From contig NZ_CP180230.1 in assembly GCF_047555085.1 (NCBI RefSeq), forward strand, positions 690,001 through 722,000: a stretch of DNA of 32,000 nt. Direction: 5' to 3'. The notes below the pieces were generated by a model that worked only from the letters and a program-made list of their open reading frames with translations, had not been told where the DNA came from and searched no databases. Shown piece by piece: positions 1 through 32,000 of this stretch (positions are counted from its first letter, which is position 1; every line of letters starts with the position of its first letter). The stretch is from Candidatus Saccharimonadota bacterium (GTDB lineage: Archaea; Nanohalarchaeota; Nanosalinia; Nanosalinales; Nanosalinaceae). Both the position numbers and the translations under genes were made by a program.

Positions 1-1
1 T

Positions 2-157
2 TCCACAGAAAATGGAATAATCAGAGAAAAAGACCCTTATAGAGAAATAAGCTATCAATTGAGTGAGTTAGATGATGCTGTCAGGGGTGTAGGGAATGCC
101 TTGGCGGAATTCAAAAGGTACGTACAGCGAAGAGATTCAGAAAGTTCTGAAAATTAG
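2..157 (+). CDS. 3' end of a hypothetical protein; the ORF runs off the left edge
   Basis: Frame 2 is open from the window edge to TAG at 155-157 (...ELDDAVRGVGNALAEFKRYVQRRDSESSEN*). Too short for the ORF track. No recognisable motif. Confidence 0.3.
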   Translation, partial: STENGIIREKDPYREISYQLSELDDAVRGVGNALAEFKRYVQRRDSESSEN

Positions 158-311
158 ATATTTGGTAGATTTTAGCTCAACATATTTGGCTCTAAGCCGG
201 AAGGCCTCTGGGAGCTTCCTGTTTTTCATACCTTAGAGAGAATTCCAGTACTCCGATAGATATAGTCCCTCCCTGTCAATATAGGAAGATTATCCTCTAT
301 CAGATATTTTT

Positions 312-542
312 ATGTCATTAGAATACTGCCCGAACTGTGGAGAAGATCTCACCCAGTACAGAAGTGAGGACGAGGAAGAAACCTCGATCTCGGATCTCGA
401 TATGTCAAAGGAAGAAGTTAGAGCATTCCTCCATCTCGCCATAATGAAGCGTGAAAGAGCCGAGGAGCTGAACGAGAGAGTTGATAACGATAAGATACTC
501 GAATGGAAAGACGCTATAGAGGAGAAAATAGAGAAAAAATAA
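312..542 (+). CDS. Small acidic protein with an N-terminal CPNCG half zinc-ribbon motif; hypothetical, carried on the element
   Basis: 76-aa ORF, convergent with the integrase (13-nt gap). CxxC at residues 6-9. Charged helical C-terminus. Confidence 0.5.
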   Translation: MSLEYCPNCGEDLTQYRSEDEEETSISDLDMSKEEVRAFLHLAIMKRERAEELNERVDNDKILEWKDAIEEKIEKK

Positions 543-554
543 GGGAGTCGCCCG

Positions 555-1976
555 TCATATACTTCCCTTTAACTCCTCGATCACGCCTTTTTCTTCTATA
601 TAATCACTTATTGCTTCCTCCAGCTTCTGTTTCTCTTCATATGCATCTCCTCCAGATTCGGATCTGTTGTGGCACTTTAACTCTTCGTCAGCTTCCTCTC
701 CACAGTCTGGACAGTATTTCTGTAGGTCCGAAACCAGTTTTCCGCAACTACATTCCCACGGCTTCAAGCTGTTGTCATTGAACTTTCTCTCACTTTCAGT
801 CAACTCTTCTCCGTAGTCTTCTCTTACACCTGCAAGAACACTCTCCTGCATTAATTCGATGTAGTGCTTAGGAGCATCTGAAGTCTTACTCCACCCAAAA
901 AATGCTCGAAGAAAGTTCTCGTTTTTATCCTGTGCCGCCCAGTATAGGGCTCGAGCATCTCTCCAGAACCAGTGTGGCTTCTTCGTAAGTTGGTCAGGAA
1001 CTATATCTTCTCGTTTGGCCTGTTTCAAAATTCTCTGTAATACCTGTCTCATATCGTTTCCTGTCATAGGCTTCCTTCTTTTATCCGCCTCGGCCGCTTT
1101 ACCTTTCCAAGAGCAACCATCTCCCTGACAATGATACGTTCTCCGGTGGTATGCAGTATTCCTGTCAGCGTCTAAATCTTTGGTACCGCATTTCGGACAT
1201 CGATTCTCCTGATTATTCTGCTGGAAAACAGGTTCTGAAAGATCTGGATTTTCCCTATTTTGCAGCTGCTTCATAACGGGCATTGAGGCCCGTACAGGGA
1301 TTTCTCTTTCACCGCTTTTACCTCGAAGTGTTACATACATCTCGCTGCCATCGAATCTGATGTCCTTCCACTTAATCGGCTCTGGATGCTGGTGGTGGTC
1401 GGCTGTTTTACCCATTTCTCCTATCCTTGCTCCTGTTGCCCATCCGAAAAGTATCAGACAACGGTCACGAATGTTATTTGCCTGCTCTGCCACCAACTTG
1501 ACGTGTTCTGGAGTAGGCCGAGTATGGATGTCAATAGTAGTAGAAAGATCTACATTTACATCGAGGTCATCGACTAGTTCAGGGCCATCAAGCTCTTTGT
1601 TAAATCCTTTGCCCTGCTTCTTGATGAATTTGTTGTAGAAAACTCTTACAGCTTTCCAGAAATCATTCTTACTGTGGTCACTGTAACACTCTCCGTTCAT
1701 CTTCCTTAATCCATCAGTGTTCAATGCGTTGACGATCCCCTCAATATCTTTCTTTTCAGCTTGATCGAGAGGAAAGTCAATCAGTTCGGCGAGTCTGTTG
1801 AACCGGCTTGCATAATCTTTCAATGCAGTTTGTCCGGTCCCTTTGCTCCCCATCTTGCGGAAGAACTCGTTAAGGACTTGTTTGTTGTGATTGCTGATTT
1901 TAGAATTTTCAGAAAGTTTACGGTGGTTCTGTTCTACAGAGTCGAATGTCATATTGTCCGGTTCTTGGGTCGCCAT
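555..1976 (-). CDS. int: Tyrosine recombinase / phage-type integrase with inserted zinc-ribbon motifs
   Basis: 473 aa. The catalytic-domain layout is typical of Xer/phage integrases: GARIGEM (Arg), HWFWRDARALY (H-x-x-R region), and SDAPKHYIE (Tyr). Two Cys clusters are present: CPKCG...CQGDGC and CSCG...CPDCG. It lies adjacent to a tRNA. Confidence 0.85.
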   Translation of the reverse strand: MATQEPDNMTFDSVEQNHRKLSENSKISNHNKQVLNEFFRKMGSKGTGQTALKDYASRFNRLAELIDFPLDQAEKKDIEGIVNALNTDGLRKMNGECYSDHSKNDFWKAVRVFYNKFIKKQGKGFNKELDGPELVDDLDVNVDLSTTIDIHTRPTPEHVKLVAEQANNIRDRCLILFGWATGARIGEMGKTADHHQHPEPIKWKDIRFDGSEMYVTLRGKSGEREIPVRASMPVMKQLQNRENPDLSEPVFQQNNQENRCPKCGTKDLDADRNTAYHRRTYHCQGDGCSWKGKAAEADKRRKPMTGNDMRQVLQRILKQAKREDIVPDQLTKKPHWFWRDARALYWAAQDKNENFLRAFFGWSKTSDAPKHYIELMQESVLAGVREDYGEELTESERKFNDNSLKPWECSCGKLVSDLQKYCPDCGEEADEELKCHNRSESGGDAYEEKQKLEEAISDYIEEKGVIEELKGSI

Positions 1977-1996
1977 ATGTTAGATTTCGAAAGGTT

Positions 1997-2011
1997 CCTC
2001 TTTTAAAGAGG
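1997..2011. promoter_or_regulatory. Palindrome CCTCTTTTAAAGAGG containing a TATA-like TTTAAA, upstream of the integrase
   Basis: 7-bp perfect inverted arms around one base, located 21-35 nt upstream of the int ATG. The A/T core resembles an archaeal TATA box. Confidence 0.3.
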
Positions 2012-2040
2012 ATTAACGAAATCCCAAGACCGGGTAGCTA

Positions 2041-2113
2041 TGGCAGGACCCGGATTTGAACCGGGGTCTGGCCGTCCCAAACGGCCAATGATAGTCCACT
2101 ACACCATCCCGCC
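2041..2113 (-). tRNA. tRNA-Pro (anticodon UGG)
   Basis: Hand-folded cloverleaf. Acceptor GGCGGGA/TCCTGCC. Anticodon stem GGCCG/CGGCC with loop TTTGGGA. T-arm CCCGG-TTCAAAT-CCGGG. Discriminator A. No encoded CCA. Confidence 0.9.
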
Positions 2114-2253
2114 ACGTGTTACGCTACGTGAACGCAAGCAGCCATTCAAAAAGTAATGGCTCTGAAAAGTTGACTGTATAATCTGTGTCGTGCTGAAGTC
2201 TTTTAAACCATATCTTGTGTGAGGCCTTCTGGATGCGTGGATTTGTTAGATAG

Positions 2254-2260
2254 TTTTAAA
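2254..2260 (+). promoter_or_regulatory. TATA-like box (TTTTAAA) for the oxidoreductase gene
   Basis: The A/T heptamer is centred about 33 nt upstream of the ATG at 2290, which fits a leaderless or short-leader archaeal transcript. Confidence 0.3.
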
Positions 2261-2289
2261 CCGGAGGCCTGAAAATTTTAGTTGTAGAG

Positions 2290-3324
2290 ATGGATAAGGA
2301 TACTGTTGTTGCTGGTGGAGGTGCTGCAGGATTGAACGCGGCGCTGGAACTGGCGAGGAGAGGCCTTGAACCGGTTCTTATTTCACGTAACAGTCGTCAT
2401 ACTTACAGAAACGCTTTACACCATATGATCTCCGGCGGGGATCTGGAAAGTCTTTCTATAGATCTCAAGGAGTTCCTTGACGGCACGCCTGTCGAGTTCG
2501 TGGAAGAGGAGATCGAAGGATTCGACCCGGAGAAAAAAGAAGTGGAGACAGCTGAACAGAGTTTCAGCTACGAGAATCTTGTCGTGGCACTTGGAAACCA
2601 GGCCTCATCCGATATTCCAGGCCTTGACTACACTGAAGATTTTTACACAGGTGAAAACGCACGGCAAGCAGTTGAATCACTTGAAGATGCTGAGAAAGTA
2701 GCTGTAGTGGGTGCAGGAAGGAAAGGCGTACAGGTAGCCGGGGAACTGCACAAAAACGGATACGATGTAACTCTTGTAGACAGTTCCACAAGGCCTCTTC
2801 CCAGAGAGTCAAGTGAGGCCTCTAAAAAATTACTTGAAGTATTCAACGAAGAAGATTTGAGTTTCAGAGGAGGCTCCACAGTCAGAGAACTTACAGGCTA
2901 CGGTATAGAGTTCGAGGACGGCAGCGAACTGGAAGTAGATGAAGTAATCTGGTGCGGAGGCCTTTCATGCAACGAAGTAGTTCAGAGAGACTTCAACTGC
3001 GGCGATGAAGGCCTTGAAGTTAACAGAGGTCTCTCCGCTACAGGTTTTGACGGCGTTTTCGCTGCCGGAGGATGCTCAAATCTTGAGGACAGATCCTTTG
3101 GATCAGCTGTTAAACAGGGCAGACACGCCGCTAAAAATATTGCGGAAAGTTCGAAGCTTCTGGAGGAGTATGAGCCCGGTGAACTGAAGCTTTTCAGTAT
3201 GGGAAAGTACGGAGTCTACATAAGGAACGAAAGATGTCATATAAGCCGTGCTACAGGATTACTGACGCGTTACCAGCACAGGAAATACCTTCTGGATCTC
3301 AGAAGGCAGGGATTCTTCCTGTAA
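2290..3324 (+). CDS. FAD-dependent pyridine nucleotide-disulfide oxidoreductase, NDH-2 (type II NADH dehydrogenase)-like
   Basis: 344 aa. Two Rossmann dinucleotide motifs: VVAGGGAAGLNAALELARRG at the N-terminus and VAVVGAGRKGVQVAGEL at mid-protein. GD-type FAD motif FAAGGC near the C-terminus. Confidence 0.75.
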   Translation: MDKDTVVAGGGAAGLNAALELARRGLEPVLISRNSRHTYRNALHHMISGGDLESLSIDLKEFLDGTPVEFVEEEIEGFDPEKKEVETAEQSFSYENLVVALGNQASSDIPGLDYTEDFYTGENARQAVESLEDAEKVAVVGAGRKGVQVAGELHKNGYDVTLVDSSTRPLPRESSEASKKLLEVFNEEDLSFRGGSTVRELTGYGIEFEDGSELEVDEVIWCGGLSCNEVVQRDFNCGDEGLEVNRGLSATGFDGVFAAGGCSNLEDRSFGSAVKQGRHAAKNIAESSKLLEEYEPGELKLFSMGKYGVYIRNERCHISRATGLLTRYQHRKYLLDLRRQGFFL

Positions 3325-3327
3325 GTT

Positions 3328-3855
3328 TCAGTGAAGTGTTCCTTCACGTTTGTCGACATCGTAGGCGAAAAGAGCGTAGCCTATGTCCACAGGCCTGTAT
3401 CCTGTCTCATCAGCTATTTCTCTGATAGGATTCATCATCGTGACGTAATCAGAGGCCGTGAAACTTTCCTTGCGGCCTTCCAGATAATCCAGTCTTTCAA
3501 GAGAGGCCCATACACGCGTATCAACTACTGCATGATTTTCTGGATCGAAGGCTGCTACTACACACGACGCTGTCGGCGCCTTGAATCCTTTCAGGGCCTC
3601 TATCAAGGCTATCTTCGAGAAATCATCTTCGACTTTCAGAACGTTCCCAGTCACCGTCCTGCATCGTTCCTCAGGATTTTTCCGGACGTGATACGCGCTT
3701 CTGGTGCTGGATTCATACGCTATCTCGTAAAGCTGTTCTCTAGTAAGAAATCCCTGATCCCTGTAACTCTGCCCGAACACCTCAAGTCTCTCCGGCAGAA
3801 GGCCCTGCGTCTCAGAGTAAAAATCAAGATACTTCTCCACAGTTTCCCTGTCCAT
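3328..3855 (-). CDS. Hypothetical protein, possibly a helix-hairpin-helix-like DNA-binding fold
   Basis: 175-aa acidic ORF. The segment KGFKAPTASCVVAAFDPENHAVVDTRVW resembles HhH-type motifs (recalled from memory, weak). The fully overlapping + strand ORF is basic and Cys-rich and is rejected. Confidence 0.55.
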   Translation of the reverse strand: MDRETVEKYLDFYSETQGLLPERLEVFGQSYRDQGFLTREQLYEIAYESSTRSAYHVRKNPEERCRTVTGNVLKVEDDFSKIALIEALKGFKAPTASCVVAAFDPENHAVVDTRVWASLERLDYLEGRKESFTASDYVTMMNPIREIADETGYRPVDIGYALFAYDVDKREGTLH

Positions 3856-3894
3856 ACAAGGCCTCTAGAATAACAACTTGAAAAAATTTCAGGC

Positions 3895-4572
3895 CTACAG
3901 AGTTCTTTCACTGGAGACATGAAGGCCTCTCTTTCCGACGCTGTAGAGATACTGGACTTCCTGCGGTGTCAGAGCGTGGTCGTAGATTCTGACATGCTGT
4001 ATTTTTCCACTGAAGAAGTTGTTATTTGATCCATAGTCATCGTATCTCCCTATTAGAACATCATTTATACTTCCCGTCAGCTTACCATGAGAAACAGTGT
4101 CCAGTAGCTCGCCGTTTACATAGAGATAGGCAGTAGCACCATCATATACTCCTGTAACGTGTTGCCAGTTGCCTTCGCTGTAACTTGAAGGCGATCTAGC
4201 GGATTTCCATTCACTCCCATTATAAATCGCAAATTCCCATCTATCTCCGTTATACGCCCTCAATACTGCATCGTAATATGTTGGATCTGGCAGTCTTCTC
4301 TGAACAAGTGCCGCCCAAGCCTGCTGTGTCTCCTGAGGTAGCGTCCAGGCAGAGAAGGAAACTGAGTTTTCAGCTGAAATAGATTCCGACTGAGGTACAG
4401 AAACGTAATCATTGTTGCCATCGAAACTATAACAGTTACTGCCAAGTATCCCTGTTCCCCCAAGAACCGTAGAGTCTCCGCCATCACCAACTGAGCCATT
4501 ATTTCCATTTCTGACGTCGTATGCAGTTGATCCTGAAGTCTCATCTAGAGGCCAGTATGCTTTCAGTACCAT
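3895..4572 (-). CDS. LamG / concanavalin-A-like lectin domain protein (Laminin_G_3-type), single module
   Basis: 225 aa. Family hallmarks: N-terminal YWPLDETSG, FDGNNDYVSV, W..VTGVYDG....LYVNGEL, and a C-terminal IQHVRIYDHALTPQEVQYLY. The start abuts the stop of the upstream paralog (TAA-ATG). Confidence 0.8.
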   Translation of the reverse strand: MVLKAYWPLDETSGSTAYDVRNGNNGSVGDGGDSTVLGGTGILGSNCYSFDGNNDYVSVPQSESISAENSVSFSAWTLPQETQQAWAALVQRRLPDPTYYDAVLRAYNGDRWEFAIYNGSEWKSARSPSSYSEGNWQHVTGVYDGATAYLYVNGELLDTVSHGKLTGSINDVLIGRYDDYGSNNNFFSGKIQHVRIYDHALTPQEVQYLYSVGKRGLHVSSERTL

Positions 4573-5952
4573 TTAGTGGTTCACCAGGTGTTTTCTCATG
4601 TCGCGGCCTCTCGTACCGTAATGGTATATCTGGAAAATTTCTCTTCTACTCAGCGTTCTGTCGAATACACGTACGTCGTCCACCTTACCGGTCCCGTAAG
4701 CATCATAAGAATTATCAGAGTCATCGTAACGTGCACCTATACTGTCTCTGACTCCATTATTACTGGAAAGACTGTTTGTCCACGAACCTGCGTACAATGA
4801 GTTTTTGAACACTTTATGAGTTCCAGAATCGTTAACTACAGTAACATGGTGCCAGTTACCATCGTTAGCACCTATATTAACTCCTGGCTGTCCTCCATCA
4901 AATGATCCTGCCGTTTTACCGTTGATCAAGAGATCGTCGTGATCAAAAGTATGGCCTGATGCATACATCACGTTCTCAAAGTTATTTGTTGGCGAAACAT
5001 CAGTGCTCAGCCACAGAGCAACAGTATAATCCTGCCCTGCACCAGTAAGATTACTTAGCCCTATCGAAGAACTACCATTAAATTTTGCTGCCTGCCCTCT
5101 TATTGCATCATTTGTGAAAGTTACACTATTTGTCGTTCCATCGTTGGCGCCCCATGAATCCGTTGCATCGCCGTCTAACTTGTAGTATGATACTCCATTA
5201 TTTGGAGGCCTCGCGTAGTCTCCCGATCCCCATTTGTACAAAGTCTGGATTTCAGAATTTGAGAGCGCTCTATTGTAGGTGCTACATTGCGCTATAACTC
5301 CATCTAGATGAGATATGCTACCGCTACTGTACAAGAGTCTGCCGATTTGGGCATTTGATACATTTGGGAAAGGCCTAGAGTGAAGCTGTGTATTCTCGAG
5401 TTCTCCGTTCACGTAAATACGAAGTTCATTTGCTGTAGCCACTCCGACTATATGGTGCCATTCTCCGATTACTTCTGTATTGCTTTTTGATGTAACAGGA
5501 GTGTTCTGCTGTCCTCTAAGATAAAGAATAGCTGTAGCAGGATCTCCTCCTATATCTAATGCAAGTATATTATCTCCATTTGAACTCGTCGATTCTGAGT
5601 ATATACGGCCTGTGCCATCAGCTTTTACCCATGCAGAAATAGTTACAGGGAAAGACGAATTCTCCGCACCGGACACATCCACGTAATCATCACTTCCATC
5701 AAAAGACATCGCTTGGAGGCCTCCTTTTCCTGCGACGCCTGTCGTCACACCGCCGTTCAAGCTTCCATGATTTTCGTTGCCACTGTAGTCTGTCGCATTA
5801 TCATCGTTCAACGGCCAGTATCCTATCAAGCCAGAAGAAAGCGGAGGCCTGTCTCGCGAGTATCCTTGACGTAGATCGCCGTTCCGGCCTGTAGTTCCAC
5901 TCGAATCCTGATTATTTTTCCAGTCGCTTTCCGAATCCCATCTTATTGCCAT
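4573..5952 (-). CDS. Tandem double LamG / concanavalin-A-like lectin domain protein
   Basis: 459 aa with two modules. Module 1: GYWPLNDD...FDGSDDYVDV...RIYVNGEL...NRALSNSEIQTLY. Module 2: YYKLDGD...FNGSS...WHHVTVV...VDDVRVFDRTLSRREIFQIY. No N-terminal signal peptide. Confidence 0.8.
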   Translation of the reverse strand: MAIRWDSESDWKNNQDSSGTTGRNGDLRQGYSRDRPPLSSGLIGYWPLNDDNATDYSGNENHGSLNGGVTTGVAGKGGLQAMSFDGSDDYVDVSGAENSSFPVTISAWVKADGTGRIYSESTSSNGDNILALDIGGDPATAILYLRGQQNTPVTSKSNTEVIGEWHHIVGVATANELRIYVNGELENTQLHSRPFPNVSNAQIGRLLYSSGSISHLDGVIAQCSTYNRALSNSEIQTLYKWGSGDYARPPNNGVSYYKLDGDATDSWGANDGTTNSVTFTNDAIRGQAAKFNGSSSIGLSNLTGAGQDYTVALWLSTDVSPTNNFENVMYASGHTFDHDDLLINGKTAGSFDGGQPGVNIGANDGNWHHVTVVNDSGTHKVFKNSLYAGSWTNSLSSNNGVRDSIGARYDDSDNSYDAYGTGKVDDVRVFDRTLSRREIFQIYHYGTRGRDMRKHLVNH

Positions 5953-8575: not shown

Positions 8576-8611
8576 AAAATCATTAGGCCTGAGATAGGCC
8601 TCTAAATATTT

Positions 8612-13441: not shown

Positions 13442-13714
13442 ATGGTAGAGTTTGAAACTATCGAGAATGAGAGAAAAGACTACGGAAACTTTCCAGGAGA
13501 AAAATTCATCGAAGTAAGCAGGAACAAGGCCATCCAGGACGACGGAAGCGAAAACTCGTTCATACAGATCGCCACAGGATACTACGACGAAGACGAGCCA
13601 CGATACAAGAAAAGATTCACAGTACCTACAGACGATAAAGCAGTAGATCATATCGTCGAGAAACTTCCTGAGATGCTGGAAAAGGAAAAAGAAGAGGCCT
13701 CAAGCGAGGAATAA
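13442..13714 (+). CDS. Small acidic protein, possibly PC4/YdbC-like ssDNA-binding
   Basis: 90 aa. The pattern KFIEVSRNK...SFIQIATGYYDEDEPRYKKRFTVP resembles the PC4-like beta-sheet/helix layout (recalled from memory, weak). Convergent with the Rad50-like gene. Confidence 0.55.
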   Translation: MVEFETIENERKDYGNFPGEKFIEVSRNKAIQDDGSENSFIQIATGYYDEDEPRYKKRFTVPTDDKAVDHIVEKLPEMLEKEKEEASSEE

Positions 13715-13723
13715 AACAGGCCT

Positions 13724-15691
13724 CTAGAAATCCAGGCCTTTAAGTTCCTTTACTTCTGTTTCTTCTTCCAGAATTTCTCTTACATCGTCTCTGAACGTGA
13801 AGTATATTATCTGCCAGCCTTCTTTCTCAAGTTCCTTCAGGAAATCTATCTCCTTCCTTATTCTTTCAGTATCAGAATGTACGAACGCGTTATCAAGTAT
13901 CAGGAATCCAGGCTTTCCGAGTATCTCTTTGGCCAGTTTCAGTCTTACTGCCATGTAAAGCAGATCATAGGTTCCCTGGCTCAGGTCCTGTGGATCAAGT
14001 TCTCTGCCATCCTTTCTCTCAACCTTGAGCTTCCTTGAGGCCTTGTCATAGTTTATATCCGTGTAGTTGCCGTCTGTTGCCTCACGGAACATCTCCACAG
14101 CGTAACTATCGTCCCTGAATATCCTGTTGAACTCGTCCTCCTCCTCGGCCTCCATCTCCTCCAGAATCTTTATCGCATTCTTCGAGGCCTCCACCATCAC
14201 ATTCAGAGAGGATACGAACTCTTCTAGCTGGCGTAAAGCCCTGTCGAGATCCTCTACAGAGTCTACAGAAACAATACTTTCATCCATGAACTTTTCCTCA
14301 AGTACCTCTGAAACACCCGAGTCAAACTCCCTCAAATTTTCACCGTACCGATCTATCTCACTCTCAAGGCCTTCCTTCTCATCCTTCAACCGCTTCAGCT
14401 CATCCCTCTCATGCTGGAGATCTTCCTCACTGAACTCTCTGTCGACCGATCGGAAACTTTCGGAGAAATCATCCAGTACCTGCTTCCATTCACGTGGATC
14501 ATCCCTGTTAGCATCGAAAAGGCCTTTCAACTCCCCGACAGCGCTGTTTCTTTCCCTGTTGATCTTTTTCTCACGCTTATCTAAATCGTTCTCGTAGCTA
14601 TCGATAGCGTCAACTACTTCAGGAATCGTGGAGGCCTCTACACCTCGTGCTCTGGCCTCTTCAATTATATTTTCACGCTCGTTCTCCTGTATCTTGACTT
14701 TTCTGGAGGCTTTCCTGTACTCGTTTAGAGTATAACCAGCCGCAGCCAGGAAAACTACAGCACCTCCAACAAGGACAGGTACAGGATTCAGCAACGCACC
14801 AACAAGCGAAACACCGGATAAAAATCCTGAACCGATGGATGCATACTTCAGAATATTTTTTTCGGAGGCCTCAGCTTCAAAGCCTTCAGCCCCCCTCCGG
14901 ATAGTTTCAAGATCTTCAAGAGCCTTCTTCTCATTCTCAAGATCTTCTTTCCTTCTTTCAGCCTCTTTCAAATCCTCCAGAAGCCTCTGGCCTTTCCTGT
15001 ACTTCCTCTGCTCCCTTGCGTTTTTCAGCTCCTCTATAGCTTCTTTTCTGGCGCTTATCTCATTCTTCAGAGAGTCAATCTTCGAGTACTTCTGGAAAAG
15101 GCCTTCATCCTCAATCCTGTTCATGAAACTCTGAATATCATTCTTCATATCCTCTGCTCTATCCCTTTTATCCCTTAACTTCCCTGTTCCTTTAGTATTC
15201 TCCAGTTTCGCATCACTGGACGTATTCGTGAGATACCCTACTTCAGCGATCTCATCCCTCAAGGCCTCAATCTTTTTCGTCTTGGATCCCAGGACTCTAT
15301 CAGTCACATCGTTGAAGTAATCACCGTTCCCGAAATCATTCTCCCTCTCAGGAAGCCTCAGATCAAAATCACGTACGATAAAGGCATTCTTCACATCCTC
15401 AGGGCTAACATCGCCGAAAATCTTCTCCAGGCCTTCCTGAGACGCATCAAACTCTTCACCGCCGTTCTCGATAGTCAGAAGCCCGTTAGGCTGCTGGGAG
15501 ACCCTGCCGATCCCATCAAAATCCGAGGAATCATCGACAAGCATCTTCGTGATAGACTCGACCAGAAGAGTCTTACCAGACTCGTTACGGCCGTAGAAAG
15601 CATTGAATCCGGAATCCAGATCTATATCAACGTCAGTCAGAGGCCCGTAATGACTGACTTTCACCCTCTTGATCCTTACATTATCGCTCAT
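13724..15691 (-). CDS. Short Rad50/SbcC-like SMC-family ATPase with a central membrane hairpin (YhaN/SbcE-like architecture)
   Basis: 655 aa. Walker A GRNESGKT. Long charged coiled-coil arms. Signature LSQGTYDLL. Walker B/D-loop GFLILDNAFVHSD. Two hydrophobic helices (YASIGSGFLSGVSLVGALL-NPVP-VLVGGAVVFLAAAGYTL) sit at the coiled-coil apex. The whole protein contains no Cys. Confidence 0.8.
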   Translation of the reverse strand: MSDNVRIKRVKVSHYGPLTDVDIDLDSGFNAFYGRNESGKTLLVESITKMLVDDSSDFDGIGRVSQQPNGLLTIENGGEEFDASQEGLEKIFGDVSPEDVKNAFIVRDFDLRLPERENDFGNGDYFNDVTDRVLGSKTKKIEALRDEIAEVGYLTNTSSDAKLENTKGTGKLRDKRDRAEDMKNDIQSFMNRIEDEGLFQKYSKIDSLKNEISARKEAIEELKNAREQRKYRKGQRLLEDLKEAERRKEDLENEKKALEDLETIRRGAEGFEAEASEKNILKYASIGSGFLSGVSLVGALLNPVPVLVGGAVVFLAAAGYTLNEYRKASRKVKIQENERENIIEEARARGVEASTIPEVVDAIDSYENDLDKREKKINRERNSAVGELKGLFDANRDDPREWKQVLDDFSESFRSVDREFSEEDLQHERDELKRLKDEKEGLESEIDRYGENLREFDSGVSEVLEEKFMDESIVSVDSVEDLDRALRQLEEFVSSLNVMVEASKNAIKILEEMEAEEEDEFNRIFRDDSYAVEMFREATDGNYTDINYDKASRKLKVERKDGRELDPQDLSQGTYDLLYMAVRLKLAKEILGKPGFLILDNAFVHSDTERIRKEIDFLKELEKEGWQIIYFTFRDDVREILEEETEVKELKGLDF

Positions 15692-22449: not shown

Positions 22450-22845
22450 TTACAGGGATTCTACGTCGACTTCTCCTTTCTGTTTCTTGAATGCTGAAGG
22501 CAGATCGATGTGGTAGACTCCCTCGCTCTTCGAGATAATCAGCGGCATCTCATTGAGTAGACGGGAGATATTCAGCTCGTAGACGCCTTCGTCCTTGACT
22601 TTTATTGAGTCAAGATCGAACTCTATCTGGATGTTACCACGTTCCTCTTCTCCCTCTATAATCATGTCCTGGATGTCGGATTCGACTTTCTCTTTCTCCT
22701 CGTTCAGTTCGCTCTCCGATTTCTCCGGATCGCTTTCGTACATGAAAAGCGAGCATCCGCAGTCACATCCGTCGATAAGTTTGTCGGAATCGTCTTCAAA
22801 TACTTCTCCACAGTTCATGCATCTGTGTGGCATTCTAGAAAACAC
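22450..22845 (-). CDS. Archaeal Zn-ribbon protein (DUF2072-like)
   Basis: 131 aa. N-terminal CMNCG...CDCGC ribbon followed by an acidic linker and a small domain. Third gene of the GTPase/DUF2073/Zn-ribbon arrangement that I recall as conserved in archaea. Confidence 0.65.
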   Translation of the reverse strand: MFSRMPHRCMNCGEVFEDDSDKLIDGCDCGCSLFMYESDPEKSESELNEEKEKVESDIQDMIIEGEEERGNIQIEFDLDSIKVKDEGVYELNISRLLNEMPLIISKSEGVYHIDLPSAFKKQKGEVDVESL

Positions 22846-22886
22846 CTCTCTGTGAGAGGCCTCTGAAATTTTTCTCTGGCATATCC

Positions 22887-23270
22887 TTACTCCTCCTCAA
22901 GTTTTGCAAGGAAGGATACTGCATCACGTTCTTTCTTGACTTTCTCCATGACACGGGAGTTGCCGACGATGGTGATTCCTTCCCTGTAACGTTCGTTAAG
23001 TACTTTTTCGTAAAACATTTTCTTGGCCCGGTTAAGTCTTGAGTCCCTATCCGTCAGGCCCAGGAACTCAATTCCAGGGAAGTCCTCATCGATTTCGTCC
23101 ATGGCACTCTGGATAAGCCTTCTCTCCTCTTCATGACTCCATCCCTCCTCCAGGACCAGTACTGCGTTTTCTTTAACTCGTTCTATTACTGTTTCTACCT
23201 TCTCATCGAACGATTTGTCCTGAAGTTTTCCCTTGGACAGAAACTCTATTGTAACGCCGTCGTCTCCCAT
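22887..23270 (-). CDS. Conserved archaeal protein (DUF2073-like)
   Basis: 127 aa. Its start abuts the GTPase stop (23270/23271). The family assignment rests on gene context and size, so it is tentative. Confidence 0.55.
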   Translation of the reverse strand: MGDDGVTIEFLSKGKLQDKSFDEKVETVIERVKENAVLVLEEGWSHEEERRLIQSAMDEIDEDFPGIEFLGLTDRDSRLNRAKKMFYEKVLNERYREGITIVGNSRVMEKVKKERDAVSFLAKLEEE

Positions 23271-23933
23271 CTAACTTAACCTTTCGATTATCTCCTGATA
23301 AAGTTTGTCGATGTTTTCTCCCTCCTTCGCGGAAATTTCAAGGACAGGATGCTGAGGGAAAGCATCACGGACACGCTCAGGATCAGAGTCCTCAAGATCT
23401 GTCTTGTTAGCAAGCACAAGGATTGGAATATCCTTCGCTTCAAGATTTCCGATTATAGTAACGTTTACCTGAGTGTACGGATCCTCTGTAGAGTCAAAAA
23501 TTACAAGACAGGCATCAACATCGTCCAGATACTTAACGGCCTCCACAATACCTTTTGTGGCTTCTTTGGCACGGCCTTTGGCATCGTCTTCCTCTATGCC
23601 GTGTTCCTTGAAATCCTTGAAGTCAACGTTAGTTGTGATCCCTGGCATATCCAGAAGATTGATGTCGATTGAACGGCCGTCATCCGACTCAATGGCAACT
23701 TTCTCCTTTTTCTCAACGGCACGAGTTTCATGCGGTACCTCGGAGACGTTACTCATTTCCTCACCAGTCAAATCCTGAGAAATCTGATTTGCAAGAGTTG
23801 ATTTACCTGCGTTCGGAGGCCCATAGATACCGATAGAGATATCCTCCTCTGAATCCTCGAATAGACTGGACAGAATCTTCTTCAAACGACCTATCATTTT
23901 GACCATTTTGACACCTGACAATAATAAATCCAA
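23271..23933 (-). CDS. Small TRAFAC-class GTPase
   Basis: G1 GPPNAGKST, G3 DMPG, G4 NKTD, G5 SAK. Alternative starts at 23906 or 23897. Confidence 0.85.
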   Translation of the reverse strand: MDLLLSGVKMVKMIGRLKKILSSLFEDSEEDISIGIYGPPNAGKSTLANQISQDLTGEEMSNVSEVPHETRAVEKKEKVAIESDDGRSIDINLLDMPGITTNVDFKDFKEHGIEEDDAKGRAKEATKGIVEAVKYLDDVDACLVIFDSTEDPYTQVNVTIIGNLEAKDIPILVLANKTDLEDSDPERVRDAFPQHPVLEISAKEGENIDKLYQEIIERLS

Positions 23934-25971: not shown

Positions 25972-26021
25972 TACGGTTTTGAATGATTAAATCATCTTTG
26001 CAAGAAATAGCCGGTAGTTTT

Positions 26022-26693
26022 TCATATCCCGAATTTTTCGTAGGCCTTTGGCTGAAGCATGAAAATCGAGTCCTCTTCGCCGTTTTCTATGAATTCTTTG
26101 CATTCATCCGTGAATCGGTAGACTCGTTCAGCCTCTGATTCCACGACTCCTCTCTCAGTCAGGATATCAAGGTCGTACGGCGCATTTTCCACGTGGAAAG
26201 TCCTGTAAGGATCTACATCAGTCAGGTCACGTGAGCCGAAGCTTTTGATATATCCAAAGCTTCCCCACGTATTCTGGTAGTCGATGATAGTTTCCAGGTC
26301 ATCTTTGTCAAAGACTCCGCCAAAATTTTCATGGATCTGATGCGCCAGCTCTGCCGAATCCATATGTTCAGTCCGCTCATCAAGATAGTAAGTCCCCCAG
26401 ACATCGTAGCCCGCTTCCTCAAAGAAATCTATTATATCGTCCACCTGGCGCTCAGCCTTTACATTATCATTTCTTGTAGTCTTAACTTCCAGTACAAAGG
26501 CCTCTGTTCCGTTAACAAGCGCAAGATCAACTTCACGTTCCAGAGAGGCCTCTGTATCCAAGTGCTTCGAAGGATTAGACTCCTCAATAAGAATAGAATC
26601 CCAACGGACACGATCATCGTTCAAAAACGGAGAAAAATGATTTGCAAGATCCTCTACGGCATCAGTATGCTGGGAATCGAAATCACGGCTCAC
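26022..26693 (-). CDS. Hypothetical protein with a PD-(D/E)xK-nuclease-like N-terminal core
   Basis: 223 aa. EVDLALVNGTEAFVLEVKTT fits the D...(D/E)xK strand pattern of restriction-endonuclease-fold proteins. The C-terminal half is unassigned. Confidence 0.5.
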   Translation of the reverse strand: MSRDFDSQHTDAVEDLANHFSPFLNDDRVRWDSILIEESNPSKHLDTEASLEREVDLALVNGTEAFVLEVKTTRNDNVKAERQVDDIIDFFEEAGYDVWGTYYLDERTEHMDSAELAHQIHENFGGVFDKDDLETIIDYQNTWGSFGYIKSFGSRDLTDVDPYRTFHVENAPYDLDILTERGVVESEAERVYRFTDECKEFIENGEEDSIFMLQPKAYEKFGI

Positions 26694-26757
26694 TGAGAAA
26701 AATTTACTATGAAGAAGTTAAAAATGAATCGATTGAGATTGAAAAGGAGTGGATTTT

Positions 26758-27519: not shown

Positions 27520-27608
27520 AACGATAGAAAATTACAGATTCTCGCTTAAAAAATTAGACACACCAGAGCAAACAGGCCTTCCGTACAAAAATTGTCCGAG
27601 AAATTTGA

Positions 27609-27683
27609 TGGACCGGCCCAGATTTGAACTGGGGATCTCCACGTTATCAGCGTGGCGCTTTAACCTGGCTAAGCCACCGGTCC
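27609..27683 (-). tRNA. tRNA-Ile (anticodon GAU)
   Basis: Acceptor GGACCGG/CCGGTCC. D-arm GCTT-AGCCAGGTTA-AAGC. Anticodon stem CCACG/CGTGG with loop CTGATAA. T-arm CCCAG-TTCAAAT-CTGGG. Discriminator A. Confidence 0.9.
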
Positions 27684-27762
27684 CTGTGTAAATGGAGTGG
27701 TGTGGGAATTTTTTTAACGTGTCCGATTCCCGTCGGAGCTGTGATAATGGAAATATGTGGAG

Positions 27763-27785
27763 GAGAGGCCTTTGAAGGGCCTCTC
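27763..27785. terminator. Hairpin GAGAGGCC-TTTGAAG-GGCCTCTC just downstream of the aEF-2 stop
   Basis: 8-bp perfect stem with a 7-nt loop, 5 nt beyond the stop at 27790-27792 and between fusA and tRNA-Ile. No strong T-run follows, so a processing or terminator role is uncertain. Confidence 0.3.
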
Positions 27786-27789
27786 TGTG

Positions 27790-29973
27790 TTATTCTTCGA
27801 GTGAAGGCATTTCCTGTTTCATGCCTTTTCTTTCTCTGATCTGCAGGATCTTTTCTTCCTGTAGATTCATTGGCAGTGGCTCGAAGATGATGTCGATCAA
27901 GCTGAAGAATCCCTGTCCGTTTGTTGCGGACTTCAAAGCGGCTTCGAATCCGAACAGTTCTTCGACTGGAAGCTTGCATTTGATGACTGATGAGTCGCCT
28001 TCTTCTTCCATGTTGATGACGTCTCCTCTTCTGTTGGAGACTTCTGTCATGGCTTCTCCCATCGTGTCCTTCGGTGTGTCGATTCTAAGCTTCTGCTTTG
28101 GCTCGATCAGTTCAGGGCCTGCCTGGAGGAATCCTCTCTTCATGGCGTCTTTTGTTGCCGGGATCATCTGGCTTGGGCCTCTGTGGATTGCGTCCTCGTG
28201 TAGCTTTGCGTCGTGAAGCTTGACCTTCAATCCGATTACAGGCTCTCCTGCTAGAGGGCCTTCGTCGCAGAACTCGTGGAAAGCATCTACAAGGTATTCC
28301 TGGATCTCTCTCAGGTTCTTGATTCCTCTGGATGCGTTGATGAACAGGTTCTCCTCGTAGGCCTCTATGATGTTGTCTGCTTCGTCCTGATCAAGGCCTG
28401 CTTCGACAAGTGCATCTCTGACTTCTGTCTGATCATCAGCCTGCATCTTGATTTCCTCGTATTCCTCCTTCAGGAACTTTCTGACTTCTTCATCGATAGG
28501 TTCTACAGTGATGTCAAGCTTGTTGTGGCGGTTCGGGGACTTTCCTGTGACTTCAGGTGAGTCCTCTGTGATTCCTTCACGGAATACGACGATCGGCTCG
28601 GAAACTTCGATGTCGATTCCCTGTTCTTCAAGATGTCTCTCAACTTTCGCCTCGATGTGAAGCTCTCCAAGGCCGGAAACTGTTGTCTCTCCTGTTTCTT
28701 CGTCGATGGATACCTGGATGGTGTTGTCTTCCTTGGAACGCTTACGCAGCTCTTCAATCAGCTTCGGAAGATCGCTTGTACGCTTCGGCTCAATAGCCTT
28801 TGTAACAACAGGCTCGAATACGTGCTCGATCTGTTCGAAAGGCTGGATCTCATCTGCTTCCTTTGCGATGATTGTCTCTCCAGTAGAGAAGTCAGGTCCT
28901 GTGATTGCTGCGATGTTACCTGCTGGAACCTCATCAACTGTAAGCTTTCGTGGTCCGGAGTAGATTCCTACCTGCTGAGCTCTTTCAGTCTTGTGAGATT
29001 CGATTCCGTACAGTTCGTCTCCCTCGTGGACTGTTCCGGAGAAGATTCTCGCGGTTGCAATTGTACCTGCGTGCTCGTCGTCTTCAACGTTTGTGACAAC
29101 TCCGACGAAAGGCCCGTCCTGATCTTGCTTGGCCATCGACTGTCCTACTTCACTTTCAGCGTCTCCCGGCCAGATAGCTGGAATTCTGTACTGTGCAGAT
29201 TCCTGTGGATTGTTGAGGTGCTTGACAACCATGTCAAGTACGACTTCTTCAATCGGTGCATCGCTTGAAAGTCCGTCGTGGTCTCCCTCGTTGACTCTTT
29301 CGATTATATCTGAGAAAGTGATTCCGGATTCCTGCATGTAAGGAGCAGAGATAGCCCAGTTCTTCAGTGCAGAACCGAATGCGACTGTTCCATCGTTTAC
29401 AGCCATACTCCACTGCTCAGCTGTCTCTTCATCTGCGTACTTTCTCAGGATGTTGTTAACTTTTCTTATGATTTCAGTAAATCTTTCCTGCATCTCCTCA
29501 GGAGTCAACTGCATCTCTTCGATCAAACGATCGACCTTGTTGATGAACAGTACCGGCTTGACGCCCTCATTCATCGCCTGCTTCATGACAGTCTCTGTCT
29601 GAGGCATGACGCCGTCAACGGCATCGACAAGAACTACTACTCCATCGACAGCACGCATAGCACGTGTAACGTCTCCTCCGAAGTCAACGTGCCCCGGAGT
29701 ATCGATAAGGTTGACCAGATAGTTGGCCCCATCGTACTCGTGGACCATCGAAATGTTCGCAGAATAAATAGTAATACCTCTCTCCGCTTCCTGATCATCG
29801 AAGTCCATGAAGCGCTGATCTCCAGCAAGCTTCTCCGAGATCATACCAGCTCTCGCCAGCAGATTATCTGTTAAAGTTGTTTTACCGTGGTCAATGTGCG
29901 CCGCGATGGCGATGTTCCTGATATGCTCAGGATCATTAATTACCTCCTGAATTGCGTCAAGCTCTTTACTCAT
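27790..29973 (-). CDS. fusA: Archaeal translation elongation factor 2 (aEF-2)
   Basis: 727 aa. G1 AHIDHGKTT, DTPGHVDF, NKVD. The diphthamide-site His lies in HEDAIHRGPSQ. The archaeal EF-2 domain order is present at full length. Confidence 0.95.
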   Translation of the reverse strand: MSKELDAIQEVINDPEHIRNIAIAAHIDHGKTTLTDNLLARAGMISEKLAGDQRFMDFDDQEAERGITIYSANISMVHEYDGANYLVNLIDTPGHVDFGGDVTRAMRAVDGVVVLVDAVDGVMPQTETVMKQAMNEGVKPVLFINKVDRLIEEMQLTPEEMQERFTEIIRKVNNILRKYADEETAEQWSMAVNDGTVAFGSALKNWAISAPYMQESGITFSDIIERVNEGDHDGLSSDAPIEEVVLDMVVKHLNNPQESAQYRIPAIWPGDAESEVGQSMAKQDQDGPFVGVVTNVEDDEHAGTIATARIFSGTVHEGDELYGIESHKTERAQQVGIYSGPRKLTVDEVPAGNIAAITGPDFSTGETIIAKEADEIQPFEQIEHVFEPVVTKAIEPKRTSDLPKLIEELRKRSKEDNTIQVSIDEETGETTVSGLGELHIEAKVERHLEEQGIDIEVSEPIVVFREGITEDSPEVTGKSPNRHNKLDITVEPIDEEVRKFLKEEYEEIKMQADDQTEVRDALVEAGLDQDEADNIIEAYEENLFINASRGIKNLREIQEYLVDAFHEFCDEGPLAGEPVIGLKVKLHDAKLHEDAIHRGPSQMIPATKDAMKRGFLQAGPELIEPKQKLRIDTPKDTMGEAMTEVSNRRGDVINMEEEGDSSVIKCKLPVEELFGFEAALKSATNGQGFFSLIDIIFEPLPMNLQEEKILQIRERKGMKQEMPSLEE

Positions 29974-30055
29974 TTTAGATATACACCGAGTTTATACCGA
30001 AAAATTCTTTACAAGATTTAAAAAAGGCCTACTAAGAAAAACACAGGAAAAATTC

Positions 30056-30697
30056 TCAAAGGCCTCTAACATCCGACTGAGAAAATCCTCCACGCGAAGC
30101 ATTATACAAGGCCTTTATCGAGGCCTCCGGAAGAGGATAATCCCAGACACGGACATGAGCCAGTTTTCCTCTGCCATAGCTACCTCCATTTCTATTCTCA
30201 CATATCTTATATGCATTGAACTGTCCAGAAGTCAAGTTAGAAGAAGTATCCAGAAGTTCACCATTCCTGTATGCCTTGGCACCATTGGGGCCGACTTTCC
30301 AAACAATATTTACCCAGCCTGCTCCGTTAACATTATTCCATCTAAGTCTAGTATTGGATACTTCATTCAGAACAAGATTGCTTCCATTGTAATATAGCTG
30401 AAGAGAATTAGATACAGTGTAGTCATCAGTTGTAGAAAAATATGAATTCTGTATATTATCTGTTTTCAGCCAGATAGAAACCGTATGACTCCCATTCCAG
30501 TTAGGCGCAGAAGAATAAACGCGGCCATCCTGTCCATCAAACTCGTACGCAGATTCTCCCAGAGGCCCGGAAACGTCCTGCGTAACACCAACACTCAAAG
30601 AACCATGATGCTCTCTCCCCGAATAATCCAAAGCATTTCCAGAGGCCTCCTGCAAAGGCCAGTATCCAACAGTCCGCGTAAATATTTTCGATCTCAT
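30056..30697 (-). CDS. LamG / concanavalin-A-like lectin domain protein, single module
   Basis: 213 aa. GYWPLQEASGNALDYSG..HGSL, EFDGQDG, AYRNGELL, and a C-terminal LAHVRVWDYPLPEASIKALY. Paralogous to 3895-5952. Confidence 0.8.
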   Translation of the reverse strand: MRSKIFTRTVGYWPLQEASGNALDYSGREHHGSLSVGVTQDVSGPLGESAYEFDGQDGRVYSSAPNWNGSHTVSIWLKTDNIQNSYFSTTDDYTVSNSLQLYYNGSNLVLNEVSNTRLRWNNVNGAGWVNIVWKVGPNGAKAYRNGELLDTSSNLTSGQFNAYKICENRNGGSYGRGKLAHVRVWDYPLPEASIKALYNASRGGFSQSDVRGL

Positions 30698-30706
30698 AAA
30701 TTTGAT

Positions 30707-31456
30707 TCAGCTCCTCGAAAATCCCCAATTAGCATTTCTCCCAACATTATACAGCTTCCAGACCTGCTGCTGAGACAAGGCCTCAGAATAAATCCTTACT
30801 TCATCGATCTCTGAGTTCCCTGATGTTACGCTGCCATTACTGTCATCATATCTGGCGCCTATTTGTGTATCCTTGGAATGTGATATAGATCCATAGGATG
30901 CCGGCGAACCCGGATCATATGCAGTGGTTTCGGCCTCTGTACCATCCAGTAAAATCCTCATACTGTCTTTATCATTATCTCTCATAACCACTGCATGATG
31001 CCAGTTTCCATCAGCGACCACTTGAGTTGTCCTATATACAATCTCATCATTGCTTCCATCATCTATGGAAATTCTTAGATATCCTTGAATAATCCAGCTG
31101 TAAAAACCTGCAAAGCCTGCACTTTCATCCCTGTTATCAATAATAGGGACATTTCCGCTTGTATCGGAGGTCTTAAACCAAAAAGAGACACTGAATGATG
31201 AACTGCCGAATGTACTGGCAAAGCTATGTGGCACATTCACGTAATCATCGCTCCCATCAAAACTAAAGGCCTCAGAGCCTCCGACACCGGAAGCGCCTGT
31301 AGTAATTCCACCATTCAAAGATCCATCATTGCTCCCCCAGGAGTCACTGATAACACCTGAAGATACATCACTTGAATCCATACTCCAGCGACTAACAGCT
31401 GAAGAAGGCCTGACTTTGTCCGGATGTACAGTTGCCTCATTCAGATTTTTAGTCAT
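30707..31456 (-). CDS. LamG / concanavalin-A-like lectin domain protein, single module
   Basis: 249 aa. SWGSNDGSLNGGITTG...FSFDGSDDYVNV, WHHAVVMRD, and IDEVRIYSEALSQQQVWKLY. Overlaps the upstream paralog by 4 nt. Confidence 0.8.
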   Translation of the reverse strand: MTKNLNEATVHPDKVRPSSAVSRWSMDSSDVSSGVISDSWGSNDGSLNGGITTGASGVGGSEAFSFDGSDDYVNVPHSFASTFGSSSFSVSFWFKTSDTSGNVPIIDNRDESAGFAGFYSWIIQGYLRISIDDGSNDEIVYRTTQVVADGNWHHAVVMRDNDKDSMRILLDGTEAETTAYDPGSPASYGSISHSKDTQIGARYDDSNGSVTSGNSEIDEVRIYSEALSQQQVWKLYNVGRNANWGFSRS

Positions 31457-32000
31457 ACATCAAGGCCTCCCATCTCAACAATTTTTTGGATTTCACTCTG
31501 AGTTAGAGGCCTGTTGTATATACGGAAGTCTGATATCTTGCCGTCCAGGTGTTCGTAGTTGTAGCCTCCGAGAGAGATAAATTCCGGGGAAAGGGTTATT
31601 CCTGCGTCTGTTAAAGTATTCTTTTTCTGGCCGTTGTAGTAGAAGTCAACATCGTTTCCTGTGCCGTGATTTACAAGAGTCACAAGATTCCAGGAATTGT
31701 TCTCCCATTCAGAGACCGGCATCAATCCATCTCCCCACGGAGACTGGATCTTATCAGTCGCAGAATCATAGATATACACTCTATCCGAGTTATCAGGAGA
31801 ATCAAATAGATAATCCCCGTTAGTTCCATCTGCAGAAAGATTCTCCGTATTTGCCCAGAAAGAAATCGTATAAGTAGAAAGGCTTAGGGCGGAAGTATCT
31901 AACTGAACTTCTTCATTGTTAGCCGAATCAAAACTTCTGGCCTTCGCTCCTCCAAGGCCTACAGCCGTACTCGTACCTGTCACACTCGTAGAATCAAAAT
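31453..32000 (-). CDS. LamG / concanavalin-A-like lectin domain protein, 5'-truncated by the window edge
   Basis: The frame stays open upstream of the track's GTG at 31983 (..FDSTSVTGTS..). C-terminal ISDFRIYNRPLTQSEIQKIV. The family N-terminal YWPL segment must lie outside the window. Confidence 0.75.
   Translation of the reverse strand, partial: FDSTSVTGTSTAVGLGGAKARSFDSANNEEVQLDTSALSLSTYTISFWANTENLSADGTNGDYLFDSPDNSDRVYIYDSATDKIQSPWGDGLMPVSEWENNSWNLVTLVNHGTGNDVDFYYNGQKKNTLTDAGITLSPEFISLGGYNYEHLDGKISDFRIYNRPLTQSEIQKIVEMGGLDV

Follow-up and report, generated by a model that had tools for sequence, protein, structure and literature searches.

The palindromic hexamer AGGCCT is hyper-abundant in a subset of Nanohaloarchaea, in a manner resembling the HIP1 palindrome of cyanobacteria

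The DNA considered here is a stretch of 32,000 nucleotides (assembly GCF_047555085.1, contig NZ_CP180230.1, positions 690,001 to 722,000), hereafter called the window, and the subject is the palindromic hexamer AGGCCT, with which it is crowded. Among the genes of the window, those for a class I LysRS, EF-2, Mre11/Rad50, OapABC and LamG surface proteins, together with an intron-containing tRNA gene, indicate an archaeal origin. The EF-2 is 94% identical to that of a Nanohaloarchaeota metagenome-assembled genome and 77-91% identical to those of more than 30 other nanohaloarchaeal genomes, and by these genes the window organism is placed as a nanohaloarchaeon, a very small halophilic symbiont within the DPANN archaea.

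An exact count gave 128 AGGCCT sites in the 32,000 bp (4.0/kb) for a zero-order expectation of 6.4, an observed/expected ratio (O/E) of 19.9, in close agreement with a preliminary description of the same DNA that had estimated about 125 sites (plus or minus 10) by eye for about 6 expected. AGGCCT is the commonest of all hexamers in the window, and among the hexamer palindromes, which the preliminary description had proposed to compare, the runner-up AAATTT reaches 24 copies. Within AGGCCT fall 128 of the 217 GGCC tetramers of the window, and the remaining NGGCCN palindromes are scarce (TGGCCA 3, CGGCCG 3, GGGCCC 1). Markov models of orders 1 to 4 predict 7.1, 24.7, 56.6 and 115.6 sites respectively; the high-order figures are, however, inflated and circular because AGGCCT supplies most of its own sub-words, and with AGGCCT masked before the sub-words are counted the expectation is 5.6-10.6 across orders. 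The excess therefore holds against a Markov null, one of the checks that had been suggested.

Within ORFs (open reading frames) there are 111 sites, distributed over the three reading frames (27/47/37) and over genes of both strands, as had been described; the gene at 2290-3324, chosen earlier as the example, carries seven sites across frames 0, 1 and 2. Shuffling of synonymous codons with the protein and the per-gene codon usage kept (500 shuffles) yielded 19.8 +/- 3.7 sites with a maximum of 32, and shuffling of the codon order yielded 8.4 +/- 3.1. The observed number is thus far above both codon-aware expectations, and the earlier statement that the excess is not protein-driven is confirmed. 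Outside genes, with ORFs of at least 80 aa and tRNAs taken as genic in ORF-based gene maps, 26 of the 128 sites (20%) were found in 10.8% of the window, a density of 7.5/kb compared with 3.6/kb in coding DNA. The preliminary description was therefore right about the higher density outside genes and the non-coding share of about 11% but slightly high in placing roughly a quarter of the sites there; the intergenic spacers that it named as examples are all present.

The sites of the window are preceded by R in 93 of 128 cases and followed by Y in 100 of 128, and GAGGCCTC is present 26 times. The R-AGGCCT-Y bias reported before is thus genuine in the window, but it is particular to the clade of the window and weak or almost absent in another enriched clade, so that the unit is the hexamer itself; beyond +/-2 the flank composition is close to background. 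Spacing between sites is near Poisson and not even (coefficient of variation 1.23; 25 gaps of at most 50 bp for 23 expected), which argues against a coverage or regular-spacing function and for a process acting site by site. A spacing or coverage function was consequently rejected, the Poisson-like spacing giving no sign of diminishing returns.

That the excess is an artefact of composition, codon usage or dipeptides, or the footprint of a dispersed mobile repeat of the MITE (miniature inverted-repeat transposable element) or REP (repetitive extragenic palindrome) kind, is practically excluded. The expectation of 115.6 sites from the maximal-order Markov model, which would favour an artefact, is the circular figure that drops on masking; the synonymous shuffle falls far short of the observed count, the use of GGC depends on its context (see below), and the excess is seen in independent assemblies, one of them a complete genome. 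An element of the REP or MITE kind would have conserved sequence past its core and copies present as insertions. The flanks of AGGCCT are not conserved past +/-1, and at aligned sites relatives show single-base variants and no indels. Masking, shuffles, flanks and indel-free alignments together refute both forms of this explanation.

For comparison across genomes EF-2 was used as the marker, with 10-23 kb around its gene taken from each related genome (10-32 kb per genome, the window included). In about 35 related genomes the O/E of AGGCCT is bimodal, being 12-18.5 in eight, among them the complete genome SG9, 4.6 in one and 0.2-2.0 in about 27; the pooled O/E of the loci from enriched genomes is 16.0. 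On the EF-2 tree, a neighbour-joining tree of this single protein whose key contrasts also rest on syntenic alignments of 10-15 kb, the enriched genomes fall into three separate clades, each with non-enriched sisters. Among the enriched genomes are CP012986 (SG9), JALDAN01 (NHA29), LKMX01, LKMQ01, JAWOFP01, JBKHHG01 and JBDGSI01; their non-enriched sisters comprise JBEQAY01 and CAYMJB01 (as to JALDAN01), LKMP01 (as to LKMX01), a lineage without the excess after losing it, and further Nanohalobium metagenome-assembled genomes. The same bimodality appears when one considers the synonymously permissive peptide contexts (R-P, [KQE]-A followed by a T-initial codon, and x-G-L): per genome, the fraction of them that carries AGGCCT, here called the realised fraction, is 0.49-0.91 or 0.02-0.15. 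A metagenome contig obtained by pattern search (L178, with MetRS, ValRS, aRF1 and SufBD) has a realised fraction of 0.91. Scans of viral and metagenome collections for AGGCCT triplets returned mostly chance matches or tandem repeats, the truly enriched sequences being L178 and a few short contigs.

To gauge the strength and kind of the force, nine enriched loci (158 kb, 499 AGGCCT) were pooled and set against 27 non-enriched loci (478 kb, 100 AGGCCT). Permissive contexts carry AGGCCT in 61-70% of cases in the enriched set compared with 5-9% in the non-enriched set. Per codon, these contexts are themselves 1.4-1.7 times commoner in the enriched genomes, so that the protein sequences have shifted along with AGGCCT. 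GGC makes up 89% of Gly codons in A-GGN-CT, compared with 19% elsewhere in the same genes, in the enriched loci, and 17% compared with 23% in the non-enriched ones. At the four-fold position of A-GGN-CT the odds of C rise 43-fold relative to A, 35-fold relative to G and 33-fold relative to T, and at the remaining synonymous positions of AGGCCT the boosts are 9- to 183-fold, some of them on small counts. As C is favoured alike over A, G and T, the force is base-agnostic. In line with this, one-off variants at the central positions (T, A or G) are equally depleted in enriched relative to non-enriched loci, at 0.66-0.71-fold, and GGGCCT/AGGCCC, the transition variant at the outer position, is raised 3.9-fold. 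In the enriched loci the O/E of AGGCCT is 40.7 in non-coding and 13.8 in coding DNA, the latter being lower because of coding constraint, and one parameter, a preference of about 35-40-fold for the complete hexamer, accounts for both. These observations show a strong directional force, specific for AGGCCT, which treats every potential site separately and is bounded only by coding or regulatory constraint.

The sites arise by substitution, since they align without indels to one-off variants in relatives. In pairs of enriched genomes (n = 8, 78-82% nucleotide identity), alignment with relatives, also among the checks suggested earlier, revealed that 60-77% of AGGCCT positions are conserved compared with 24-33% of those of GC-matched hexamers (p 1e-7 to 2e-2). 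Towards non-enriched relatives of the same divergence, on the other hand, conservation of AGGCCT positions falls to 0-12%, lower than background. Enriched genomes thus keep their sites in place, and sites decay once the force is lost. A genome caught in such decay may be L023, the one with an O/E of 4.6 and a realised fraction of 0.15. It is nested in an enriched clade, its nearest relative is the enriched L019, and it has single-base variants where L019, L016, L014 and L004 all carry AGGCCT; the parsimonious reading of these alignments is that L023 lost the maintaining force and that its sites then decayed.

In five non-enriched genomes (L009, L015, L017, L042 and L005), AGGCCT lies below expectation, with an O/E of 0.2-0.5, a realised fraction of 0.02-0.04 and few sites per locus. 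The low values, on small counts per locus, may hint at avoidance, as if these genomes faced a restriction enzyme cutting AGGCCT. Other palindromes around GGCC are depleted in enriched and non-enriched genomes alike, namely GGGCCC (O/E 0.09-0.17), CGGCCG (0.27-0.46) and TGGCCA (0.5-0.6), and GGCC overall stands at 0.61 in the non-enriched nanohaloarchaeal genomes.

The preliminary description had also pointed to a concentration of sites at gene boundaries. In a metagene profile of 157 genes from enriched genomes, 11-14 AGGCCT/kb are reached in the 30 nt past stop codons, and in 44 of these genes a site lies no more than 35 nt from the stop. About a third of the post-stop sites abut or overlap the stop codon (TAA-AGGCCT, TA[A]GGCCT, T[AG]GCCT), and the excess there owes something to the stop codon, which contributes some of the hexamer or the flank that it prefers. 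Close pairs of the form AGGCCT-N3-10-AGGCCT can form hairpins, any two copies of a palindrome being an inverted repeat, and nine of 13 such pairs are non-coding for 4.6 expected, about 2-fold. Downstream of EF-2, hairpins from AGGCCT pairs are present in four enriched genomes, and at the same place several non-enriched relatives have hairpins of unrelated sequence with T-rich tracts after them. When six regions of the window were folded, three did better than shuffled controls (z-scores -2.6, -3.4 and -5.2). The 3' regions would be the least constrained DNA, in which terminator-like stems, needing only self-complementarity, could have been converted to the palindrome. Given that the non-coding O/E (41) is near the synonymous boost (about 35), no boundary function is needed for the concentration at gene ends. 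This concentration is real but mostly secondary, and stems for the most part from relaxed constraint, together with stop-abutting sites and hairpin-forming pairs.

Among known systems, AGGCCT most resembles HIP1 (highly iterated palindrome, GCGATCGC) and its alternates. Both are short GC-rich palindromes enriched at least 15-fold, present in all frames and in intergenic DNA and spread by substitution, and they share the conservation of positions among relatives, one-off variants skewed to the outer positions and a patchy distribution. On 10-32 kb per genome, AGGCCT shows several traits of a HIP-type palindrome, namely an enrichment of at least 15-fold, presence in three frames and non-coding DNA, substitution origin, position conservation and outer-skewed variants. 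A quasi-periodic distribution at the scale of 10-90 kb also counts among the traits of this class; over the 32 kb of the window the spacing is, at short range, Poisson-like. One alternate, CAGGCCTG of Synechococcus sp. PCC 6312, even contains AGGCCT as its core. For HIP1 itself, an enrichment of 15-300-fold, sites in every frame and conservation of positions have been described (PMC5861425); among its one-off variants there is a bias to outer positions, and cognate methyltransferases accompany it (Elhai, PMC4390886); and it boosts transformation, an effect that depends on methylation (bioRxiv 10.64898/2026.06.24.733823). Xu et al. read it as sites under natural selection. Unlike HIP1, AGGCCT occurs in DPANN archaea, is a hexamer rather than an octamer and has no central GATC. 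It is also 4-10 times denser (3-4/kb compared with 0.3-1/kb), to the point that its synonymous contexts are near-saturated, and sister lineages about 80% identical in nucleotide sequence can have it switched on or off. In full-text literature searches no report was found of an AGGCCT excess in nanohaloarchaea or in any archaeon. What is new here is therefore a HIP-like palindrome in a DPANN archaeon, with a hexamer core, a higher density, near-saturation and sister lineages in which it is on, off or just lost.

Taken together, these results are best read as a HIP1-like hyper-abundant palindrome in a subset of Nanohaloarchaea, kept up by a force that would stem from an AGGCCT-recognising determinant prone to gain and loss and probably linked to a methyltransferase, a reading to which a probability of roughly 0.5 is given. 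A force that is on or off between sister lineages, and the same hexamer in three clades, point to a discrete determinant, easily gained and lost, that would recognise duplex AGGCCT. Easy gain and loss are typical of restriction-modification and orphan methyltransferase genes, and the most likely candidate would be a DNA methyltransferase of the StuI type, whose methyl mark may bias which allele survives repair or recombination. This might happen by a methylation/mismatch-repair ratchet of the kind put forward by Elhai, or by methylation-dependent uptake or integration of conspecific DNA, as lately proposed for HIP1. Both HIP1 mechanisms are base-agnostic, and both fit the AGGCCT data. Under either, the excess at gene ends and the hairpin pairs would be secondary, with unconstrained DNA standing at the full boost, stops giving part of the motif and stems being free to adopt the palindrome.

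An AGGCCT-specific methyltransferase exists in Alcanivorax borkumensis SK2, where methylation of the second C of the same hexamer on both strands, in a StuI-type system, and 1674 AGGCCT sites have been reported (PMC12128166). Another methyltransferase, predicted by REBASE to be AGGCCT-specific, turned out by experiment to methylate GGGCCC (PMC6700114). For published nanohaloarchaeal methylomes only GDGCHC is reported, plus a second Dcm-like enzyme without an assigned motif; of the cultivated strains, SVXNc has a Dcm-like methyltransferase (SVXNc_0487) to which no motif is assigned, and BNXNv has no Dcm. As for A. borkumensis, with a genome of roughly 3 Mb, its number of sites amounts to a modest excess at most, and the hexamer is not hyper-abundant there. 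The targets of restriction-modification systems are normally avoided and not accumulated; AGGCCT, 20-fold over-represented, lacks the avoidance of a type II restriction target.

Several points weigh against the methyltransferase-linked reading. The search for a methyltransferase, Vsr or MutH-like gene that the preliminary description had recommended came back empty: neither in the window nor across about 700 kb of nanohaloarchaeal loci did such a gene, or one for uptake, turn up, which leaves the determinant a pure inference. Among the roughly 38 ORFs of the window, Pfam and NCBIfam scans detected neither a methyltransferase nor a gene for repair; when the related loci were searched by tblastn, the queries being M.HhaI, M.HaeIII, E. 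coli Dam and Vsr, and by a regular expression for beta-class N4/N6 methyltransferase motifs, only unrelated viral contigs matched; and L178 and the few short enriched contigs have no methyltransferase. Among the matches listed (at least 120) for a protein search seeded with M.HaeIII (GGCC), all are close relatives of HaeIII and the few with an organism name are bacterial, so that nothing was gained for nanohaloarchaea. Furthermore, the density of 3-4/kb is well over the saturation at about 1/kb that follows from Elhai's argument on mismatch-repair coverage, the phylogeny relies on one protein (EF-2, neighbour joining) plus the 10-15 kb of syntenic alignments, and site-wise natural selection for some function would predict the conserved positions and the 35-fold boost equally well.

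The form in which a methyltransferase had been invoked at the outset, taken strictly as a solitary cytosine enzyme coupled to T:G repair of the Vsr/Mig type that turns AGGTCT and AGGCTT into AGGCCT, is very improbable. Dcm/Vsr is known to raise the frequency of its cognate site (CCWGG) modestly in E. coli, and Methanothermobacter offers an archaeal case of a GGCC methylase accompanied by a T:G glycosylase. In E. coli a methyltransferase target is thus indeed raised by repair bias, but that effect is T:G-specific and small, whereas the bias at AGGCCT is equal against A, G and T and about 35-fold per site. The 43-, 35- and 33-fold preferences for C contain no T-specificity and the depletion of central near-cognates is the same whether they have T, A or G; known effects of very-short-patch (VSP) repair are much weaker than 20-fold, and no Vsr homologue was seen in the window or the related loci. 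T:G-specific VSP drive is hence disfavoured, as T-containing near-cognates are not selectively depleted; the methyltransferase half of the original proposal, in a process of another kind, stays the leading idea. A drive without methylation, of the type of the DNA uptake sequence (DUS) of Neisseria or the uptake signal sequence (USS) of Pasteurellaceae, would have a receptor or recombination protein prefer DNA with AGGCCT, so that alleles with the motif replace others. It shares with AGGCCT a base-agnostic and site-independent force limited by coding constraint, the scarcity of the motif in young foreign DNA, perhaps inverted pairs (which can act as terminator-like hairpins) right after genes as in Neisseria and Haemophilus, and a force that is greatest at central and least at outer motif positions. 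Known uptake sequences, however, are non-palindromic, 9-12 nt long and found about once per kb, tied to a competence receptor, in contrast to a palindromic 6-mer at 3-4/kb whose flanks add little. A 6-mer also offers little power to tell foreign DNA apart, transfer of a specificity gene of the restriction-modification type would more easily explain why one hexamer recurs in three clades, and no competence genes were seen in the window or the related loci. To our knowledge, natural transformation has no precedent in DPANN archaea, and we know of nothing like the DUS/USS competence receptor in nanohaloarchaea. Such an uptake drive is therefore held to be unlikely, though by no means negligible.

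Ordinary natural selection on each AGGCCT as a functional site, bound by an abundant chromatin, boundary or termination protein or acting as an RNA hairpin, predicts the same conservation as the methyltransferase-linked reading and stays a live rival, albeit a rather improbable one. Positional conservation far over that of control motifs, the peak of sites in the 30 nt past stops and the better folding of site-pair hairpins than of shuffles would all agree with it. On the other hand, 80% of the sites lie within genes and in every frame, the non-coding density is about what the synonymous boost predicts, and about a third of the post-stop sites simply touch the stop codon or overlap it. In non-coding DNA, close pairs exceed expectation by only about 2-fold, the Poisson-like spacing is free of diminishing returns, and non-enriched sisters whose gene order is the same manage without the sites. 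A bolder reading, quite doubtful at present, is that AGGCCT serves as a watermark of "self" on a symbiont chromosome. A horizontally mobile module, a methyltransferase or a reader, would tell own or conspecific DNA from that of the haloarchaeal host, and, being coupled to recombination, uptake or a processive nuclease, might drive its own target to near-saturation. If this is so, it would give archaea their first functional analogue of HIP1, DUS or Chi, which evolution can turn on and off.

For about 30 years palindromes of the HIP1 type have lacked an explanation, in part since nearly all cyanobacteria carry them and few contrasts are available. The same kind of signal is now found in another domain of life, in 1-Mb genomes and at higher saturation, with close lineages in which it is present, absent or newly lost. 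Presence/absence profiling over a few dozen small genomes could thus name the responsible gene or genes and discriminate between methylation, repair bias and DNA exchange. In practice, AGGCCT offers a sharp compositional marker with which nanohaloarchaeal lineages can be binned and recently acquired DNA picked out. It also distorts codon usage and amino-acid content (1.4-1.7 times more R-P, [KQE]-A-x and x-G-L), for which codon-bias and phylogeny models should allow.

The individual features of the window that bear on the distribution of AGGCCT are collected in Table 1.

Table 1. Features of the window with a bearing on AGGCCT (positions are those of the window)
Feature	Position	Strand	Remarks
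AGGCCT-poor island	1..2114	-	1 site for 8.5 expected, Poisson P = 0.0013
Tyrosine-recombinase (integrase) gene	555-1976	-	directly adjoins the 3' end of tRNA-Pro(TGG) at 2040-2114; no AGGCCT
Pyridine-nucleotide disulphide oxidoreductase gene	2290..3324	+	7 AGGCCT in all three frames; 7 of 10 permissive contexts filled
Three AGGCCT 32 bp apart	3859..3928		across the ends of two convergent ORFs
AGGCCT-GAGAT-AGGCCT pair	8585..8601		in the 36-bp spacer of convergent genes; possible 7-bp hairpin, fold z -2.6
Three-site cluster	13695..13739		3' end of Rad50-like gene (stop 13724) meets the upstream spacer
Three AGGCCT in one intergenic region	16826..16894		first two form a hairpin, fold z -3.4
Two low-GC (37-38%) ORFs	16956..17981	+	second motif-free patch; no family matches, no AGGCCT
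Imperfect pair AGGCCT / GGGCCT	27766..27782	-	right after the EF-2 stop; 8-bp hairpin, fold z -5.2
EF-2 gene	27790..29973	-	highly conserved; only 2 AGGCCT (0.9/kb)
Four AGGCCT	30025..30126		around the point where the spacer upstream of EF-2 meets a LamG-domain gene at its 3' end

The island at the tRNA-Pro gene is read, from its sequence, as young foreign DNA that would have yet to acquire AGGCCT; the integrase gene in it offers a single permissive peptide context in 473 aa. The segment 555-2114 resembles the edge of an integrated element running past the left end of the window. In the second motif-free patch, the two ORFs (16956-17402 and 17496-17981) are each preceded by a near-identical stretch of about 45 nt, which reads ...CAGAAAGAAATGAAAGAGTTrGCAGA..TGTAGTGTArAAGATGG and the tail of which occurs again after 17981; the two proteins are not alike.

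Further genes of the window merit mention. At 18015-18173 (minus strand) lies a tRNA gene with an insertion of 86 nt after the anticodon region, presumably an archaeal intron; it was detected with Rfam at 48 bits and missed by ARAGORN, and the four bases that open its acceptor stem are part of an AGGCCT site. The region 22450-23933 contains matches to the origin-associated proteins OapC and OapB and a GTPase taken as OapA, which itself matches generic GTPase families only. The OapABC cluster adjoins replication origins in haloarchaea; no Orc1/Cdc6 gene was found in the window. The three ORFs of this cluster are free of AGGCCT, and the short spacer that separates the first two holds one site (22857). 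Two clusters of proteins with tandem LamG/concanavalin-like domains, probably surface proteins, are encoded at 3895-5952 and 30056-31983. On opposite strands, two ORFs at 3328-3855 (minus) and 3331-3873 (plus) overlap over nearly their full length, neither with a family match. The 223-aa protein encoded at 26022-26693 (minus strand) has a weak match to the Hjc-like PD-(D/E)XK nucleases (E = 0.006). Its counterparts in L001 and L028 share only about 35% identity with it, compared with 72-97% between the products of the neighbouring genes and those of L001; it appears, by these comparisons, to be a fast-evolving putative nuclease.

Beyond the EF-2 loci, AGGCCT was also encountered in excess on contigs of other kinds. 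From the viral collection, L046 (IMGVR_UViG_3300029432_000018) has 13 dispersed AGGCCT in 3.6 kb at 36% GC, about 32-fold, and L051 (IMGVR_UViG_3300025172_000014), 6.6 kb long and carrying a Rep (ORF2/G2P-like) gene, has about 8-fold overall. The ends of L051 repeat each other, which suggests a circular replicon, and the repeat holds three AGGCCT 28 bp apart. A third contig of that collection, plasmid-like and with Rep3, ParA, DnaB-primase and integrase genes (L131, 53% GC), contains dispersed AGGCCT at 7.6-fold.

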